A stretch of DNA of 64,000 bases from Escherichia coli (lineage in GTDB: Bacteria > Pseudomonadota > Gammaproteobacteria > Enterobacterales > Enterobacteriaceae). Made by a program: the position numbers and the translations under genes. Where the stretch lies: NCBI RefSeq assembly GCF_048403405.1, contig NZ_CP183129.1, one strand, 5' to 3'. Below the pieces are notes generated by a model. The model had not been told where the DNA came from. It made no database searches and saw nothing but the letters and a program-made list of their open reading frames with translations. Below, one piece after another: positions 12,971 through 35,107 of this stretch. Every line of letters starts with the position of its first letter. The stretch's first letter is position 1.

Positions 12971-13045
12971 GGGTCAGTCGTATAAAGGTCATTACGGAAG
13001 GCTGTTAACCTTCTTATCGTGGTTCGAGTCCACGCTGTCCCGCCA
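12971..13045 (+). tRNA. tRNA-like gene, anticodon GUU (Asn) by manual fold; one T:T mismatch in the acceptor stem
   Basis: Manual cloverleaf: acceptor GGGTCAG/CTGTCCC, anticodon stem GAAGG/CCTTC with loop CTGTTAA, T-arm CGTGG-TTCGAGT-CCACG, discriminator G, encoded CCA. Confidence 0.45.
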
Positions 13046-13050
13046 AATAT

Positions 13051-13126
13051 GCTGGTTTAGCTCCAATGGTAGAGCAGTCGCCTTGTAAGCGAATGGGTAG
13101 CGGTTCAAGTCCGTTAACCAGCACCA
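13051..13126 (+). tRNA. tRNA-like gene, anticodon UGU (Thr) by manual fold
   Basis: Acceptor GCTGGTT/AACCAGC (perfect), D-arm GCTC-CAATGGTA-GAGC, anticodon loop CTTGTAA, T-loop TTCAAGT, encoded CCA. Confidence 0.55.
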
Positions 13127-26360: not shown

Positions 26361-27776
26361 ATGGCTACGTGGCAACAGGGTATTAATTCTGGTGGTTTTC
26401 TGGCTGGAATTGGTGCGCAAAATGAGAATGCGCCAAAGGCAAGCGACATTAACGCAACGCTTGGTCTGATTCGCGAAAACAATGAACTGGCTCGCTCAGG
26501 TGCAAATAACGTTGGTCTGACCGCGTTACGTGGTCTGGCTGGAGTTGCTGATATTTACAATCAGGAACAGCAACAGAAAGCTATTAGTGCGTTCAATAAG
26601 GTTCACGCTGATGCATGGGTTTCTGGTGATCCATCGGGACTATTTAAGTTTGCCCAGGAAAATCCAGCGTTTGTTGCACAGGCACAACAGGCGTTTTCAG
26701 GTCTTAATGATCAGCAACGCAACGATATGGGCGATTTAGCCATGAGGGCTAACGTCGCTCTTTCTCAGGGACCGGAAGCCTACAGTAAATTCATTACTGA
26801 CAACAAGGACAGGTTAAATCGCGTGGGGGCGAATGCTGACTGGATGATTCAGACAGGTATCCAGAATCCAGAGCAGCTATCACACATGCTGACTACTATG
26901 TCTCTCGGTGCGCTTGGACCAGAAAAGGCGTTTGCTGTTCAGGACAAGATGGCTGGTCGTGAAATTGACCGAGGCAGACTGGCAGAGACAATCCGCAGCA
27001 ATCAGGCTGGAGAAGCACTTCAGGCGAGAGGGCAAAACCTTTCCTATCAGTCAGCAATGACTGGGCACAATATCGCAGCACAACGCTTGGCTCTGGATCA
27101 GCAAGAGTTCGGGTTTAAGATGCAGCAAGCGCAGGAAAAGGCTCAGCAGTTGATTAGCGAAGCACCTAAGCTGTCAGTAAACATGGAAAAAGGCATCGAG
27201 ACGGCTGTAAACAATGCCACAGCATCATCAAACTCAGCCAATTCCATGAGTGCGCTTGCTCAACAGTTCAGAGCAGAAAAACCAACGACAGGTTTGTTCG
27301 GTAACGCACAGAACATGTTCGCAAAACTTACCGGAAGCGATACGACATTGCGTGATTTGCGCATTCGCCAAAATGCTCTTGTTAACAGTCAGGTTCTTAA
27401 ATTCCTACCTCCCGGCCCAGCAACGGATAAAGACGTTGAGATCGTTCGACAGGGTGCACCAACTGACATGGATAACCCTGAGACGGTCGCAAGATGGCTT
27501 GATGCGATGGCAAACCTTGAGCGACGAAACGCGCAGTTTAATGAGTTTAAAGCCGAGTGGATGAGCGCGAATGGCAATCCAGGACAATCGCGTAATGGCG
27601 GTCAGATATTGGGGTTGGATGTTAAAAAAGGTGAATCATTGGGGAGTGCCGTTAAGCGGTATATGTCAATGAATACTGACGCAGCGCCAGCACAAGATTC
27701 GACACCTTCAGGAGAACCACGGAATCAGGTTGGATCATATACCTCAAAATCAGGCATTCAATTTACGGTGGAATGA
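26361..27776 (+). CDS. Ejection protein (P22 gp20-like, 471 aa)
   Basis: Size identical to P22 gp20; gene order. Confidence 0.65.
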
Positions 27777-29614
27777 TGAAAGTAACTGCAAACGGTAAGA
27801 CATTTACCTTTCCTGATGGTACGAGCACCGAAGATATTGGCACCGCCATTGATGAGTATTTTGCTGGTCAGGCTGTTCAGCAACAAACAGTTAATCAGGC
27901 CAATAATGCACCAACACGGGAAGAACCATCATTGATGCAACAAGCTGGCGATTGGCTCACAGGTGGTCAAAGTGCAGGGCAAATTGCAGAACAGGCTGGT
28001 CGTGGTCTGGTAAACATACCATTTGACGTATTGCAGGGTGGCGCAAGTCTGATTAATGCAATCAGTCAGGGGCTTGGTGGGCCAAAAGTATTAGATGATG
28101 TCTATCGTCCAGTCGATCGACCGACAGACCCTTATGCGCAAGCTGGAGAAACAATTGGCGGGTATTTAGTTCCAGGAGTTGGAACGGCAGGAAGCATGGC
28201 TATTGGATCACTGGCAGAGGCCGCAAATCAGAAAGGCGATTTCGCACAAAATGCAGCTAAAAATGCCGGAGTTAACCTTGCCGCTCAGGGTGTTCTTTCC
28301 GCAGCAGCAAAGGGAATAGGGCGTGGAATAACGGCTATAAAAGGTGATATTGCGCCAGAAGTGGCGAAGAAAATTGCCACATCAGAATCGATGGGCGTGA
28401 CACCAATGACATCTGATGTTATCCCGCCGAAAAATGCTTTCACTCGCGGCCTTACTCAGGATGCCGAGGGGGCTTTGCTCGGGACAGGCTCAAAGCGAGC
28501 GGAGCAATATGCAACGCGTAGTAAGTTGGTAAGTAATTATTTTGACCGTTTTGGTGAGTACAACCCTGATGATGTGGTGAAATCTCTGACCACCACGTTA
28601 AGGGGGCGGAAGGATGCCGCTGGCGCTGTTATCAATGACGTCACCAATAAAATGGGTAATGCCGCAGTTGATACCACAAATACCATGAATGCTCTGAATA
28701 CAGCGATCGCAAGACAGGAACGGCTTGGGACTTCAGCCAATCAAAGCCTGCTTACATCCTTGCGTAACCTACGTGAAGAATTAGCAAACCCTGCAACTGA
28801 TTTGGATGTTACGTTTGATCTCTTGCGTCAGCACAGAACAGCATTTAGATCTAATGTTCAGGGAGATGCTATGGTCTTCCCCAACCAGGCAAAAGCAGCT
28901 ACCAATATGGTAGAGAATGCAATGTCAAAAGACCTTCGTAACGCAGTTGCTAAAAACCTCGGTGCATCAGACGCAGCAAAATACCTTAAAGCAAATTCCG
29001 ATTATGCAAACGTTTATAATAAGGTGCTTAATAAAAACATTGCTAACAAGCTCAACAAGGCAAGCAGTGAAGCCAGTCCTGAACTTATAAATACCGTTGT
29101 ATTAAGCAGAAAACCATCTGACGTAAAACGAATCTGGAGCGCATTGGATAATAAAGGGAAAGATGCTATGCGTGCAGCTTATGTCAGCAAAATAGCGGAA
29201 AAGGCCGGTGACTCTCCAGCCAAGTTCATCACTGAAGTTAATAAGCTGAAATCTCAGTCAGGCGGTGAAATTTACAACACTATTTTTTCTGGAAAGCACA
29301 TGAAAGAGCTTGATGCTCTTCATGAAGTTCTACAGCAAACAGCAAGGTCAGACACCGCAAATGTAGTAACTCAGACGGGGCAATCACAAGCCAACAGGAT
29401 AAGGACGATTGGCGCAACTGCGACTCTTGGCGTATCAATGGGGCTTGAGTCTGGCTTTGGTGCAATGATGCGTTTGTATGAGTCTAAAGCAGCAAGAAAC
29501 ATGCTTCTCCGCCTTGCAAACGTCAAGCCTGGAACTCCGGCATATGAGCGAGCGTTAAATCAGGCTGCTAACGCCGTTCGCCCTCTCCTAACTAACGAAG
29601 CTACCAGGCAGTAG
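27773..29614 (+). CDS. Ejection protein (P22 gp16-like, 613 aa)
   Basis: Size (P22 gp16 is 609 aa); gene order. Confidence 0.65.
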
Positions 29615-29633
29615 AAATGAACGCCAAGGAAGG

Positions 29634-30038
29634 CTATTTAATTCTCTTTTCAATGGCTGCAATTATTGCTTTTCCTGATGTTTCAGGAGATTTTGTAGCC
29701 ATATAAGACGAAAAAATCATGTCGGTCATTCTTTCATAACTTACTATTTCCCACTTAGCCAATGCATGGGACAGTTTGTAGTTGTCATCAGTTAGTGCCC
29801 TTATGGAATTTTTTAAGTGTTTATTCTCTTCTGTTAATCGCGCAATTTTTGTATCAATTTCATGTGAGCGATCTAATTCCTTAACCTGTTTCTTGAGGGC
29901 AGCTAACCCTGCATATAGTACGCAACAGGATATCCCAAGAGCGAGTACAACTATTTCTAACACACCAACCTCCTTAGTTTTGAGCAGGATACCAGATGAT
30001 AATGTGTAGTTGGAGTAGCGCGGTTGTAATGCAAGCAT
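29634..30038 (-). CDS. Membrane-anchored coiled-coil protein (134 aa from ATG 30038; alternative GTG start at 29963 with AAGGAGG SD gives 110 aa)
   Basis: One TM helix (LEIVVLALGISCCVLYAGLAAL) followed by heptad-rich coiled coil; divergent from the 30120 gene; AT-rich. Confidence 0.5.
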   Translation of the reverse strand: MLALQPRYSNYTLSSGILLKTKEVGVLEIVVLALGISCCVLYAGLAALKKQVKELDRSHEIDTKIARLTEENKHLKNSIRALTDDNYKLSHALAKWEIVSYERMTDMIFSSYMATKSPETSGKAIIAAIEKRIK

Positions 30039-30117
30039 TTTGTTTTAGCTTTATGCTTGCTTGTATGTGTGTACAGTGTATATAATGCAAGCATACATCA
30101 CAACAAAGGTGCTTGCA
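30030..30117. promoter_or_regulatory. Divergent promoter region with four 8-bp half-sites TGCAAGCA/TGCTTGCA in two inverted pairs around TTGCTT-N18-TATAAT
   Basis: Sites at 30030..30037, 30053..30060, 30085..30093 and 30110..30117; -10 TATAAT at 30081..30086; the last site overlaps the SD/ATG of the 30120 gene. Confidence 0.5.
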
Positions 30118-30119
30118 TT

Positions 30120-31088
30120 ATGACTGAAAAGAAAAGTGGCGAAGGGAAAGCTAAGGGCGGGATCGCTCGCGCAAAGTCGCTGACTAAAGAGCAGCGTTCT
30201 GAAATAGCAAAGAAAGCAGCTGCTGCAAGATGGAAAAGTAAGATTCTCAGGGCAACTCATCGTGGTAACTTTTTAGATGATTTTGGCATTGATGCTGAAT
30301 GTTATGTACTGGATGACGAGTCGAAAACTGTCGTTGTTACGAAAACTGGATTATCTCAGTTGCTAGGGATTGGTGAACATGCCAGGGATTTAGATCAACT
30401 GCTTGGCGCTCAGTATATGAGCAAATACCGAGATCTAGAATTGCAGCGAAAAATGGAAAATCCCTATAAATTTCAACTTACTTCGAAGTCTAAAACCGTT
30501 CATCAAGCGTTAGGTTATGACATTACAGCAATTGTTGATATTGGTAGGGCACTAATAGAAGCCAAAGATAATGACGATCTACCACAATCACGGTTAAAGG
30601 CAGCCGCCGCAGCACAGAGACTTATTAATGCCTCCGCTAAGGCGGGAATTAAGGGGGTTGCGTATGCGCTTGCTGGTTATCGTCCAGAAGTTCAGGCTGT
30701 CATTGACGAGTTCAAAGCGTTTGTTCGTGAAGAGGCTCGTCAATATGAAAAGGAATTTCCAGATGAGCTATACGAGGAGTGGTATCGACTGTACGGCCTG
30801 AATAGGCCAGAGAAAGGACGGCCTATTCGTTTTGGGCAGCTAACCAACATGCAGATATACACCCCGCTAGCAAAGAGTAAAGGTAAAATCCTTGAACAAA
30901 TTAGAGCCAGCCGAGACGAGAACGGAAAACAATCTGATAAGTTGCATCTGTTCCTTTCTGAAATTGGTGTCAAGGCTTTGCGTCAGCATATCGGTAAGCT
31001 TCTTGGTGTCGCAGCGATGAGTGAGACAAGAGAAGAATACGAAAAAGGAATAGAAAAGGTTTTCGGAAGAATGAAACCAGAAATCTAA
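30120..31088 (+). CDS. Unknown moron protein (322 aa) with basic Lys/Ala-rich N-terminus
   Basis: Start at the internal ATG 30120 of the ORF-track entry 30057..31088; N-terminus MTEKKSGEGKAKGGIARAKSLTKEQRSEIAKKAAAARW suggests nucleic-acid binding; followed by a strong terminator. Confidence 0.6.
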   Translation: MTEKKSGEGKAKGGIARAKSLTKEQRSEIAKKAAAARWKSKILRATHRGNFLDDFGIDAECYVLDDESKTVVVTKTGLSQLLGIGEHARDLDQLLGAQYMSKYRDLELQRKMENPYKFQLTSKSKTVHQALGYDITAIVDIGRALIEAKDNDDLPQSRLKAAAAAQRLINASAKAGIKGVAYALAGYRPEVQAVIDEFKAFVREEARQYEKEFPDELYEEWYRLYGLNRPEKGRPIRFGQLTNMQIYTPLAKSKGKILEQIRASRDENGKQSDKLHLFLSEIGVKALRQHIGKLLGVAAMSETREEYEKGIEKVFGRMKPEI

Positions 31089-31092
31089 TTAT

Positions 31093-31118
31093 GAAACCCA
31101 CCGTCAGGTGGGTTTTTT
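31093..31118 (+). terminator. Rho-independent terminator
   Basis: AAACCCACCgtcaGGTGGGTTTTTTGT immediately after the 30120..31088 stop. Confidence 0.55.
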
Positions 31119-31355
31119 GTACAAATCCTTCAGCGTATCAAACACCATCTTCTTAACAAGTTCAGACTGCTCATCAGCGATGCGTTCCGCATCGTCTCGA
31201 TAGCCTGAAATTTTGGATGGCTTTGATACAGCATCAGTCACTATCTGAACTAATTCTGAATTAAGAGAGCGGCCATTGGATTTGGCTCGCTGTTTTAGTT
31301 TTTCCTTTAATTCGTAAGGTAGCCGCAGATTAAATTGCGGGTCATCTCTTCCCAT
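31104..31355 (-). CDS. mnt: Mnt repressor (Arc/MetJ-family ribbon-helix-helix, 83 aa)
   Basis: MGRDDPQFNLRLPYELKEKLKQRAKSNGRSLNSELVQIVTDAVSKPS...DAERIADEQSELVKKMVFDTLKDLYKK closely matches P22 Mnt (from memory). Confidence 0.85.
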   Translation of the reverse strand: MGRDDPQFNLRLPYELKEKLKQRAKSNGRSLNSELVQIVTDAVSKPSKISGYRDDAERIADEQSELVKKMVFDTLKDLYKKPT

Positions 31356-31418
31356 TCTTGATGCCTCACTTTTGTAAGTGGATCGGCATCATATGATCTA
31401 CTGGTTATATCCACAATA

Positions 31419-31433
31419 AGACCACTGTGGTCT
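31419..31433. promoter_or_regulatory. Mnt-operator-like palindrome AGACCACtGTGGTCT
   Basis: Near-perfect 15-bp palindrome between mnt and the tailspike gene; resembles the P22 Omnt core GGTCCACGGTGGACC. Confidence 0.5.
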
Positions 31434-31490
31434 CAATGACGCATTGCCGTAGCCATGCTGCGGCGATTCCTTGTATCTGGAGCAAATTAA

Positions 31491-33569
31491 ATGACAGACA
31501 TTACAGCCAATGTTGTAGTGAGCATGCCTTCGCAACTCTTCACTATGGCGCGTTCTTTTAAAGCCGTAGCCAATGGCAAAATTTATATCGGAAAAATTGA
31601 CACTGACCCGGTAAATCCTGAAAACCAGATTCAGGTTTATGTGGAGAATGAGGATGGTTCTCACGCTCCTGTATCGCAACCAATCATCATTAACGCTGCT
31701 GGTTACCCGGTATATAACGGACAGATTGCCAAGTTCGTAACTGTGCAAGGCCATTCTATGGCTGTTTATGATGCGTATGGTGCGCAGCAGTTTTATTTTC
31801 CTAATGTGCTGAAGTATGACCCTGATCAGTTTCAGAAGAGGTTGGCATCCTTTGATGATGGTGATGGGGATGAATTAGTGTCGGTGAAACAACCATTCCC
31901 CGGAGCAGCAAATCAAACTCAACACCAAAAGAACCAACAAATCATTGATGTTCTTGACTTCGGTGCTCATCCATCGAATGCTGACAATAAAGTAGCTCTG
32001 CAATTTGCGCTAGATGCAATATATAGCATTGGAGGAGGTACACTACAGTTTTCACTACCAGGCATATATACTTTGCTTTCTGAGTTGCAAATAAAATCAA
32101 ATACTCACCTAAAGATGACTGATGGCGTAACCATTAAACGTAATTTTTCTAATGACGTCATGCTGAGAATAAGCCCTAATACTGGCACTAACATTAAAAT
32201 AACAGGCGGAATACTAGATGGAGGAGGACAAGACCACCCTACAGATCCTTTTGACATCATTGCAGCCTCCTCACCAAGAAATCTTTCTATTGTTGGAGTA
32301 ACATTTCTTGATGTAGTCGATTTTCATGCTGTAGATATTGCTGACGGGCAAGGGGTGATTATAAGAGACTGTAAGTTTCTTGGCTTCAAACCACTTTCCA
32401 ACCGAAATTATTCAGAAGCGATCCAGTTAGATCCGGGGATTGAATCTCTTGGCGATTATTACCCAAACATCAATGTTCTTGTTGATAACTGTTATTTTGG
32501 TTCAAATCCACAAAATACCACCACTGGGTTTGGGGCGTGGGGGGCGGGGGTTGGGAACCATGCTAATTCATATGGGAATCAGGACAAAAATATAAGGGTC
32601 ATAAACTGCAGGTTCGATGGAATGCTCTTTGCCGGGGTAAGGGTTTTCAACTGGTATGATTGGGTGGTTAGCGGATGCTCTTTCTATAACAGTACCGCGC
32701 GAGGAGTTCATGTAACCCCATTCCCATCATCATCAAAACCACAGGGGGCAAGGAGGGGGCGCATTGTTGGCAATTATTTTGAAGGCGTTAGATCCCCGAT
32801 TCTTCTGGCTGCACCTACATATCCATATACAGATACATCAGATGCATTTCATGAAGATATCGTAATATCCAACAATTCCATGTTTATTACAGAGTCTCAA
32901 TCATATGCAGTAGACGCAAGATGGGTTTCAGGACTAACTGTCACTGGAAACACAGCAAGAGGCGGAATCGGTTTTTTCAAAGGTGATTTTATTAACAAAT
33001 CAATCATCTCTAATAATGAATACGATTCAGGAACATCAAGTTCTTTATGGATTTCTGAAACTAATGCAGAAGAATTTATAGGGTCTGGTTTTTCGCATGA
33101 TGTTGTAATTTCTAGCAACATCTTTAGAAATATTTCCCTGCATGGGATTCATATTAATGGTAAATATTCAAATGTTACTATTCAATCAAACATTATAGTT
33201 GGGGTTTCTACCGCAGATAATAACCATAATGGCATACGAATTGACTCTGGTGCAGAAAATGTAATTGTTAGTTCAAATCAAATTCGTGATGGCGTTGCAA
33301 ATAATAAACCATTAGTTGGTATATTTGCTACATCAAGCTGTAAGAGCGTGTCATTTATAGGGAATGTTTCATTTGGAACATCAGCCACACAGAATAATCA
33401 AGCTACAGATAAAAGCTCACTTGTGATATTTGGGCAAGAAGGCAACCCAACATCTAGCGGAGTTGGAGCACCAGTTGGTTCTATTTACACTCGTTCTGAT
33501 GGAGGTGGAAATACAGTACTTTATATAAAGGAAAGCAACACAAATGCTACAGGTTGGGTTAATAAGTAA
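31491..33569 (+). CDS. Tailspike protein (692 aa): P22 gp9-like head-binding N-terminus, divergent beta-helix receptor-binding domain
   Basis: First ~110 aa match P22 gp9 ([11 protein letters not shown]...[33 protein letters not shown]...[14 protein letters not shown]...NVLKYDPDQ); remainder is unrelated, AT-rich and Gly/Asn/Ser-rich. Confidence 0.85.
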
Positions 33570-33655
33570 AACCAGCATTTAAATACAATATATATCATAA
33601 AACTTACATAATAGTTATAACTATAATTCTTGCTTAAGAATTTATAAAAACTGAA

Positions 33656-33693
33656 ACACACAAAGCTTTGCACTGGATTGCAAGGCTTTGTGT
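33656..33693. terminator. Bidirectional hairpin between the convergent tailspike and int genes
   Basis: ACACAAAGCTTTGCActggaTTGCAAGGCTTTGTGT. Confidence 0.5.
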
Positions 33694-33713
33694 TATTCGA
33701 TAGTTAATGCAGA

Positions 33714-34907
33714 TCACTCCACCTTTTCATCAAGCCAGTCCGCCCACCACTGCATCATTTCTCTGCGCTTATCGAGATACTGAGCATGGTTGTAAATTCC
33801 ACGTACAGATCCGCCGTTGGCATGTGCCAGTTGCACTTCAATGGCGTCGGCAGGCCATTCGTGCTCGTTCATAATCGTGCTGAATTCATGCCTGAATCCG
33901 TGACCGCTTTCCAGACCTTCATAGCCGATTTGTTTGATCACAAGTAGCACCGCGTTCTCGCAGATTGGCTTCTTCTTATCGTTGCGCCCGGAAAAAACAA
34001 ACTCTGATACTGGTTTAGTGATTGAGCTTAGTGTAGTGAGAAGTTCAACCACCTGGTCTGACATCGGGACAACATGAATTTTGCGTCCCTTCATCACACT
34101 GGCGTCGATGGTGATAATCCTGTTTTCAAAATCGACGTTCTTCCATAGCATGGAACGAAGCTCTTTTGTTCTTAGGGCTGTGTAGCGTAAAACTTTGGTC
34201 GCAATGAGCGATACGATACTTCCTGAAAATGTTGCAAGTGCTTTGTTGAATGCCGAGATCTGGTCGGCAGGTAAAAACGGGAAGTTCTTCTTGCGGTATC
34301 CCTTCATGGCGTCAGCAAGGTCAGGTGCCGGGTTATATTTAGCCCTACCAGTGACAATAGCGTAACGGAAAACCTCGCCGCATCTTCTGCGGGCTTTGTT
34401 GGCTCGCTCCATTGCACCGCGATCTTCAAATCTGCGGATTACTTCCAGCAGTTGCATCGGCTCAATATCCTGAATTTCAAGGCCGCCGATGATAGGTAAA
34501 ATGTCGTCATCAAACATTTTTGCAAGTTCAGTTGCATAGCCTACTGACCAGACTTGCTTCTTGTGCTCGTACCATTCCTTGTAAATCGCACTAAAGGAAT
34601 TGTTGTTAGACGAAGCCTTTTTCGCTTTTACCGGATCGATGCCAACCGAGATGTCTTTCCTCGCGGTCCATGCCTTATCCCTTGCCTCCTGCAAAGTCAT
34701 AAGCGGATATTTTCCGACGGTCAGGATTTTCTCCTTACCGTCAATCTTGTAGCGAAGCTGCCATACCTTTTTCCCTGATACAGGGACATAAAGGTACAGG
34801 CCATTACCATCGAGTAGGCGGTATGGTTTTTCTTTCGGCTTTGCTGCTTCAATCTGCTTAACGGTGAGCATGGGTAAAAATCCGGTGGGTAAAATTATTT
34901 TATCCAC
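33714..34907 (-). CDS. intS: Tyrosine integrase, P4-family (IntS-like; 397 aa, or 385 aa from MLTVKQ at 34871)
   Basis: N-terminus MLTVKQIEAAKPKEKPYRLLDGNGLYLYV typical of P4/IntS-type integrases; C-terminal HxxR...Y catalytic region; adjacent to the tRNA-Arg 3' end and transcribed away from it. Confidence 0.9.
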   Translation of the reverse strand: MDKIILPTGFLPMLTVKQIEAAKPKEKPYRLLDGNGLYLYVPVSGKKVWQLRYKIDGKEKILTVGKYPLMTLQEARDKAWTARKDISVGIDPVKAKKASSNNNSFSAIYKEWYEHKKQVWSVGYATELAKMFDDDILPIIGGLEIQDIEPMQLLEVIRRFEDRGAMERANKARRRCGEVFRYAIVTGRAKYNPAPDLADAMKGYRKKNFPFLPADQISAFNKALATFSGSIVSLIATKVLRYTALRTKELRSMLWKNVDFENRIITIDASVMKGRKIHVVPMSDQVVELLTTLSSITKPVSEFVFSGRNDKKKPICENAVLLVIKQIGYEGLESGHGFRHEFSTIMNEHEWPADAIEVQLAHANGGSVRGIYNHAQYLDKRREMMQWWADWLDEKVE

Positions 34908-35032: not shown

Positions 35033-35107
35033 TGGTGTCCCCTGCAGGAATCGAACCTGCAATTAGCCCTTAGGAGGAGCTCGTTATATCCATTTAACTA
35101 AGAGGAC
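35033..35107 (-). tRNA. argW: tRNA-Arg (anticodon CCU), argW; prophage attachment site
   Basis: Reverse complement reads GTCCTCTTAGTTAAATGGATATAACGAGCTCCTCCTAAGGGCTAATTGCAGGTTCGATTCCTGCAGGGGACACCA (75 nt, CCT anticodon loop, TTCGATT T-loop, CCA end). Confidence 0.85.

Follow-up and report, generated by a model that had tools for sequence, protein, structure and literature searches.

The mnt gene of a P22-like (Lederbergvirus) prophage in Escherichia coli is, taken as a whole, probably best explained as an mnt-only immI region, a self-regulating unit of Mnt, its operator and the promoter Pmnt that may be kept against incoming antirepressors. The structural and homology part of this explanation, which we read from sequence, is very likely to hold. 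The layout is not new; it is the known "mnt-only" form of the P22 immI region ("ant moron"), and an mnt gene diverging directly from the tailspike gene has already been published for phages ST64T, ST104 and L (PMC2629481, PMC8022706). Annotated cases of the adjacency include ST64T, ST104, L, SE1, ST160, SPN9CC, Gally and vB_EcoP-720R6, among others, and we found the arrangement in 111 of 5426 complete E. coli genomes. The phage L paper leaves its mnt-like gene as either a new function or a degrading remnant (PMC8022706).

An mnt gene and its putative operator beside the tailspike gene

The prophage lies within a 64-kb E. coli window, the whole stretch of DNA analysed (GCF_048403405.1, NZ_CP183129.1). 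From left to right, its relevant end carries the gp20 and gp16 homologues, a 134-aa gene, a P63C gene, a terminator, mnt, a 135-nt intergenic region and the tailspike gene (Table 1). Over the 114 N-terminal residues of P22 gp9, the tailspike shows 75% identity. The terminator hairpin folds at -16.2 kcal/mol (z = -3.76) and is followed by UUUUUU, and a homologous terminator is annotated at the equivalent place in phage epsilon34. Two tRNA genes (Asn-GTT and Thr-TGT) also lie inside the prophage, at 12971-13126.

Table 1. Features of the prophage end, with coordinates in the 64-kb window
Feature	Position	Strand	Description
gp20 and gp16 homologues	26361-29614		injection-protein homologues
134-aa ORF	29634-30038	minus	phrog_8100, unknown function
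P63C-domain moron gene	30117-31088	plus	323 aa; Pfam PF10546 at residues 200-287; phrog_2384, unknown function
Intrinsic-terminator hairpin	31093-31116	plus	CCCACC-GTCA-GGTGGG and T run; after P63C gene, overlaps last mnt codons
mnt	31104-31355	minus	83-aa ribbon-helix-helix repressor with Mnt tetramerisation tail and Gln6; ORF, Pfam and PDB matches
Decayed Pant-equivalent	31383-31411	plus	TCGGCA-17-TATATC, against TTGACA-17-TATATT in P22
Pmnt-equivalent, predicted	31388-31416	minus	TTGTGG (-35, 31416-31411), 17-nt spacer, TATGAT (-10, 31393-31388)
Putative Mnt operator	31418-31434		17-bp frame AAGACCAC-T-GTGGTCTC, centre 31426; positional homologue of P22 Omnt
Tailspike-leader hairpin	31443-31467	plus	UUGCCGUAGC-CAU-GCUGCGGCGA; fold -19.4 kcal/mol, z = -1.87
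Tailspike Shine-Dalgarno	31479-31482	plus	GGAG, 8 nt before ATG; identical to P22 gene 9 leader
Tailspike gene	31491-33569	plus	ORF; P22-type N-terminal head-binding domain; PHROG tail spike families
Integrase gene	33714-34907	minus	prophage end, adjoining tRNA-Arg(CCT)
tRNA-Arg(CCT)	35033-35107		next to integrase gene

Both domains of the repressor are present: an N-terminal Arc domain (Pfam PF03869, residues 3-50, E 4.7e-22) and a C-terminal Repressor_Mnt tetramerisation helix (PF11423, residues 53-80, E 2.6e-18), with matches to PDB entries 1mnt (E 2.8e-34) and 1qey (E 3.1e-12). The original prediction had called the protein a near-exact homologue of P22 Mnt, which overstates a likeness of 63/83 residues (76%). 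The protein is instead a mosaic, with residues 1-60 like those of the phage L and ST64T Mnt and a tail, residues 61-83, that hardly differs from P22 Mnt. Its DNA-reading strand has Q, L and L at residues 6, 9 and 11, where P22 has H, F and M. According to Knight and Sauer, P22 Mnt reportedly contacts bases through Arg2, His6, Asn8 and Arg10; Arg2, Asn8 and Arg10 are kept in the window and residue 6 is Gln, so that the contact set is incomplete. Judged by sequence, Gln6 argues for a different specificity class and not against membership in the fold family.

A perfect 15-bp palindrome, AGACCACTGTGGTCT (AGACCAC-T-GTGGTCT), lies at 31419-31433, 57 nt from the tailspike ATG at 31491, and bears out the earlier report of an Omnt-like palindrome upstream of the tailspike. 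It is the sole match in the 64-kb window at up to 2 mismatches, where 0.09 would be expected in shuffled sequence. We aligned the region with those of P22, epsilon34, L and Gally and read the alignment against the P22 annotation. The comparison with P22 immI, proposed along with the original prediction, places the palindrome exactly on Omnt and its flank on Pmnt, Pant and Oarc. P22 Omnt is AGGTCCAC-G-GTGGACCT, and the window palindrome aligns with it column for column in the same 8-1-8 geometry. In a 21-bp frame, the left half (positions 1-10) reads ATAGGTCCAC in P22 Omnt, ATAAGACCAC in the window and ATGATAGAAG in P22 Oarc. The window differs from Omnt at positions 4 and 6, and because both changes are repeated symmetrically in the right half, the dyad is preserved. 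By this alignment the palindrome is an Omnt homologue of a different predicted specificity class, with half-site AAGACCAC against AGGTCCAC in P22.

Some features of both repressor and operator recall Arc. The DNA-reading strand PQFNLR of the window Mnt is identical to residues 8-13 of P22 Arc, and the operator has the Oarc bases (A and A) at positions 4 and 6 of the 21-bp frame. By contrast, the remainder of the half-site, CCAC, is Omnt-like and not Oarc-like, and unlike Arc the window protein has the Mnt tetramerisation domain and a Mnt-like N-terminal arm, GRDDP.

The window thus shares with P22 immI (mnt, Omnt, Pmnt/Pant, Oarc, arc, sar, ant) a two-domain repressor, the operator position, the Pmnt register and the gene 9 leader, whereas it differs in the two symmetric half-site changes, in Gln6 for His6 and in lacking arc, ant, sar and, judged by sequence, a strong working Pant under the operator. 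Searches of the 64 kb by tblastn with P22 Arc, P22 Ant and two other Ant types gave nothing at E of 0.3 or below, in agreement with the earlier statement that arc and ant are absent; the sole Arc-like match in the window is mnt itself. An Rfam scan of 29500-33700 for sar RNA gave sub-threshold noise only.

As in the mnt-only phages (ST64T, ST104, L, SE1, ST160, Gally and vB_EcoP-720R6), mnt diverges from and adjoins the tailspike gene, and the operator, Pmnt register and tailspike-leader junction are common to all; their intergenic regions measure 135-148 nt, against 135 nt here. The upstream morons and the receptor-binding part of the tailspike differ, and phage L has an Mnt tail unlike the P22-like tail of the window. 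The original prediction had offered an immI remnant as one reading, and the Omnt position of the palindrome, its Pmnt/Pant/Oarc flank and the direct join to the P22 gene 9 leader favour that origin.

Promoters, transcripts and neighbouring genes

A promoter scan of 30900-31700 on both strands returned no promoter-like site, and our statements on promoters therefore rest on alignment with annotated P22 promoters. The Pmnt-equivalent shares its register with Pmnt as annotated in P22 (TTGAGA-17-TATCAT) and, like that promoter, falls below the scan threshold. All orphan haplotypes, the distant locus L194 included, retain the pattern TTG(T/A)GG-17-TA(T/A)GAT, and we infer that this site is active as a promoter. 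On the opposite strand, the Pant-equivalent has lost the conserved final T of its -10 hexamer. Across orphans the -10 reads TATATC (window), TGCATC (Gally haplotype) or TGTAAC (L194) and the -35 reads TCGGCA or ATGGCA; the commonest E. coli haplotype has TCGGCA-17-TGCATC. Some 13 nt separate the operator from sequence resembling the P22 gene 9 leader, with leader homology starting at about 31447.

These observations bear on a second reading of the original prediction, in which Mnt has been rewired. In its first form, Mnt would repress tailspike transcription, either by acting on what is left of a Pant-like promoter or by serving as a roadblock, whether in the lysogen or at a late stage of infection. 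The operator does lie 57 nt upstream of the tailspike start, in the path of any rightward transcript, and a possible effect of Mnt and Arc on tailspike read-through in P22 has been suggested by Villafane et al. (PMC2629481). Against this, the plus strand of the scanned interval has no promoter-like site, the Pant-equivalent hexamers are degraded and unconserved while Pmnt is conserved, and the P22 annotation gives the gene 9 leader no promoter of its own. We consider tailspike control very unlikely.

In its second form, Mnt would control a neighbouring moron, either the P63C gene or the 134-aa gene, for which adjacency is the one point in favour. No operator-like sequence occurs near 29600-30200 at up to 3 mismatches, the moron intergenic region has a TATAAT promoter of its own, that of the P63C gene, as well as GCAAGCAT inverted repeats, and the morons beside orphan mnt genes elsewhere are of quite other kinds: phage L has orf62 there, Gally two further genes, and Proteus phage Brookers a lipoprotein gene. 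Control of a moron is close to refuted. With Pant decayed, no promoter-like site and no second operator in the 64 kb at up to 3 mismatches, rewiring in either form finds little room.

Several further observations concern these neighbours. The 134-aa ORF sits at the position of sieA in P22; the searches run found no sieA homology, and PADLOC gave a weak coiled-coil-like match only. The P63C gene has no match in PADLOC or NCBIfam, and across Mnt and the two neighbour genes these two resources returned nothing informative. Several GCAAGCAT/ATGCTTGC inverted repeats at 30031-30120 flank the divergent promoter region of the 134-aa and P63C genes and may form an operator set for some other regulator.

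The tailspike-leader hairpin is common to P22-type leaders, with arc and ant, and to orphan-type leaders; the changes between them are mostly wobble-compatible, and two pairs show double changes. L194 has an A-U to U-A double change, P22 carries the 5' part of the hairpin motif twice upstream of gene 9, and the hairpin is half lost in some haplotypes (L012, L045 type).

Selection and decay among orphan mnt loci

Orphan lineages share the operator-to-leader junction, which indicates that arc and ant were absent before these lineages diverged, and the orphan mnt gene is under purifying selection. Comparisons of orphan with orphan mnt gave pN/pS values of 0.11-0.29 (binomial P 1e-5 to 3e-12). For the window against the ST160/SE1 types, pS was 0.34-0.35 and pN 0.036-0.047 (pN/pS 0.11-0.13, P about 1e-7); against phage L over codons 1-58, pS was 0.89 and pN 0.12 (pN/pS 0.13, P 3e-12); and comparisons involving L194 gave 0.25-0.29.

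The remaining rival holds that arc and ant were deleted and that mnt and its operator are junk that has not yet eroded, an option raised in the phage L paper (PMC8022706). Loss is tolerated in some loci: two (L052 and L062) encode a 52-aa truncated Mnt and have a mutated operator, about 11 haplotypes carry the outer-base variant GTGGTCG, and single Mnt substitutions that look damaging (G28C, R29C, P13L/S) occur in orphans. In Brookers (L206, 1722-1830), an intact orphan mnt stands beside a head-binding protein gene, and its operator keeps the left half AAGACCAC while the right half has decayed to GTGATACT. Such erosion is set against low pN/pS among junction-sharing lineages whose synonymous sites are near saturation, an mnt ORF intact in about 58 of 60 distinct orphan loci, and the architecture of L194, in which, although its Mnt is just 60% identical, the operator is perfect and both Pmnt (TTGTGG-17-TAAGAT) and the leader hairpin are still present. 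A decaying remnant is, on this balance, unlikely, although less so than either form of rewiring.

The operator varies in a restricted way. In the 37 distinct intergenic sequences of orphan loci, changes within the six inner bases of either half-site are all singletons, the outermost right base is T or G, and the centre base (the 31426 column) is T in 11, A in 9, G in 12 and C in 5. These are direct counts, since a MAFFT column table understates the variation at 31433 by gapping the GTGGTCG variants. The variable centre could be an unconstrained centre or a mutable hairpin-loop position. Conservation of the operator is not cleanly separable from recombination history, because recombination is evident: the window mnt is identical in DNA to that of Escherichia phage Gally, and yet the intergenic DNA differs from Gally at 8 of 62 positions and by an indel. 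Relative to phage L the intergenic DNA is about 95% identical (7 positions differ over the 135 nt by direct reading), and the synonymous sites of mnt are near saturation beyond codon 10. Sharp mosaic boundaries lie at the mnt start in the comparisons with Gally and phage L.

Longer spacers between mnt and the tailspike also occur, of 419-431 nt in one set of loci (L013, L033, L047-L054 and L062) and of 922 nt in L030. In some long-spacer prophages, extra DNA and then a second tailspike N-terminal domain come after a normal tailspike leader and start (ATGACAGATATTAT...); the extra start may be a truncated or duplicated head-binding-domain ORF from tailspike swapping. A further four loci (L066-L069) encode a His6-type Mnt, 90-93% identical to P22 Mnt, followed by about 800 nt of other sequence and a 57%-identical ant; they have no Omnt-like palindrome at the usual position and no Omnt or arc after mnt.

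Specificity classes and a proposed role in immunity

Repressor and operator types are associated across 80 viral-contig loci that we chose by protein similarity alone. In this set, every Mnt that starts with GRDDPQFNLRLP lies 62 nt from AAGACCAC-N-GTGGTC(T/G), followed by the tailspike leader, and every Mnt that starts with ARDDPHFNFRMP and has arc and ant after it has AGGTCCAC-N-GTGGACC. Gln6 is thus paired with AGACCAC half-sites and His6 with GGTCCAC.

The window operator class also occurs in complete modules of mnt, operator, arc and antirepressor. Among the first 120 pattern matches we identified five with AGACCAC-N-GTGGTCT half-sites (L111, L127, L128, L129 and L137), which have a consensus-like Pant (TTGACA-17-CATTAT) and Mnts that begin ARDDPQFNLRM, and a more distant sixth, L204, with a 19-bp perfect palindrome, a different antirepressor and a Mnt-like protein beginning SREDPQMKIRLP. 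The Mnts of all AGACCAC-operator modules, L204 included, have Gln6, and the operator is used by several unrelated antirepressor types. These loci were found by the operator-pattern scan itself, and the covariation covers few independent lineages. Unlike the window, the complete modules retain a strong Pant, an Arc-like gene and the antirepressor, their Mnt C-terminal parts are unrelated to that of the window, and they are metagenomic siphovirus contigs in which the module sits among siphovirus tail genes, in ES18/SPN3UB-like and Erwinia-phage-like tail regions, and not beside a tailspike.

Complete modules of this operator class seem to be rare. Two queries of the 5426 E. coli genomes found no complete AGACCAC module, and neither did two exact-pattern scans of 100,044 representative genomes; the lone exact-pattern match in the latter has no mnt or arc and is due to chance. 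The best E. coli matches (H97) are of a third class, which phage Emek represents (TAGTAC-G-GTGCTA). In this class, seen in Emek and E. coli FREC5, ARNDPQFNVRMP goes with TAGTAC-G-GT(A/G)CTA, and Gln6 occurs with G at position 4. A code in which residue 6 reads positions 4 and 6 is partly tenable given the Emek-type pairing, and the one column that agrees with residue 6 in every case is position 6, which has A where the residue is Gln and T where it is His. From published work on Arc and Mnt we infer which residue may contact which base.

By homology, Mnt would bind 31418-31434 as a tetramer. If mnt transcription starts near 31381, the operator would extend over roughly -37 to -53 relative to that start; it would also lie across the start site of an earlier ant promoter that has lost key bases of its hexamers. 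Since Pmnt is conserved, the Pant-equivalent has decayed and the window holds no second operator, the sole target in cis is the mnt promoter region. The operator would then tune mnt alone in cis, by autoregulation, and transcription of the late operon would read through into the tailspike gene, as it does in P22.

Classically, Mnt silences ant, also on superinfecting genomes. This role, together with the presence of matching antirepressor modules in other enterobacterial phages, makes repression in trans, in our view, the likeliest selective value of the gene. That orphan mnt is kept for trans-repression of incoming antirepressor genes, which would spare the prophage from forced induction, is a tentative proposal. 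Tentative too is the stronger version, in which orphan Mnt would be a stand-alone prophage defence: made constitutively from its own promoter, it would silence any antirepressor promoter with AGACCAC-N-GTGGTCT that a superinfecting phage brings in, and so keep such phages from driving the resident prophage into lytic growth.

To a known arrangement, the covariation of operator classes and the evidence for selection add modestly. For the choice that the phage L paper left between new function and degrading remnant, they add that the orphan mnt shows purifying selection, that its operator and promoter still match it, and that the promoter on the ant side is lost. At least two or three specificity classes can be told apart among the natural Mnt/operator pairs, which provide a test set for DNA recognition by ribbon-helix-helix proteins. 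The operator class is common to the complete antirepressor modules of other enteric phages, which makes trans-acting immunity directly testable; if it is true, the Gln6/AGACCAC and His6/GGTCCAC pairs would be natural specificities of a second, antirepressor-level immunity.
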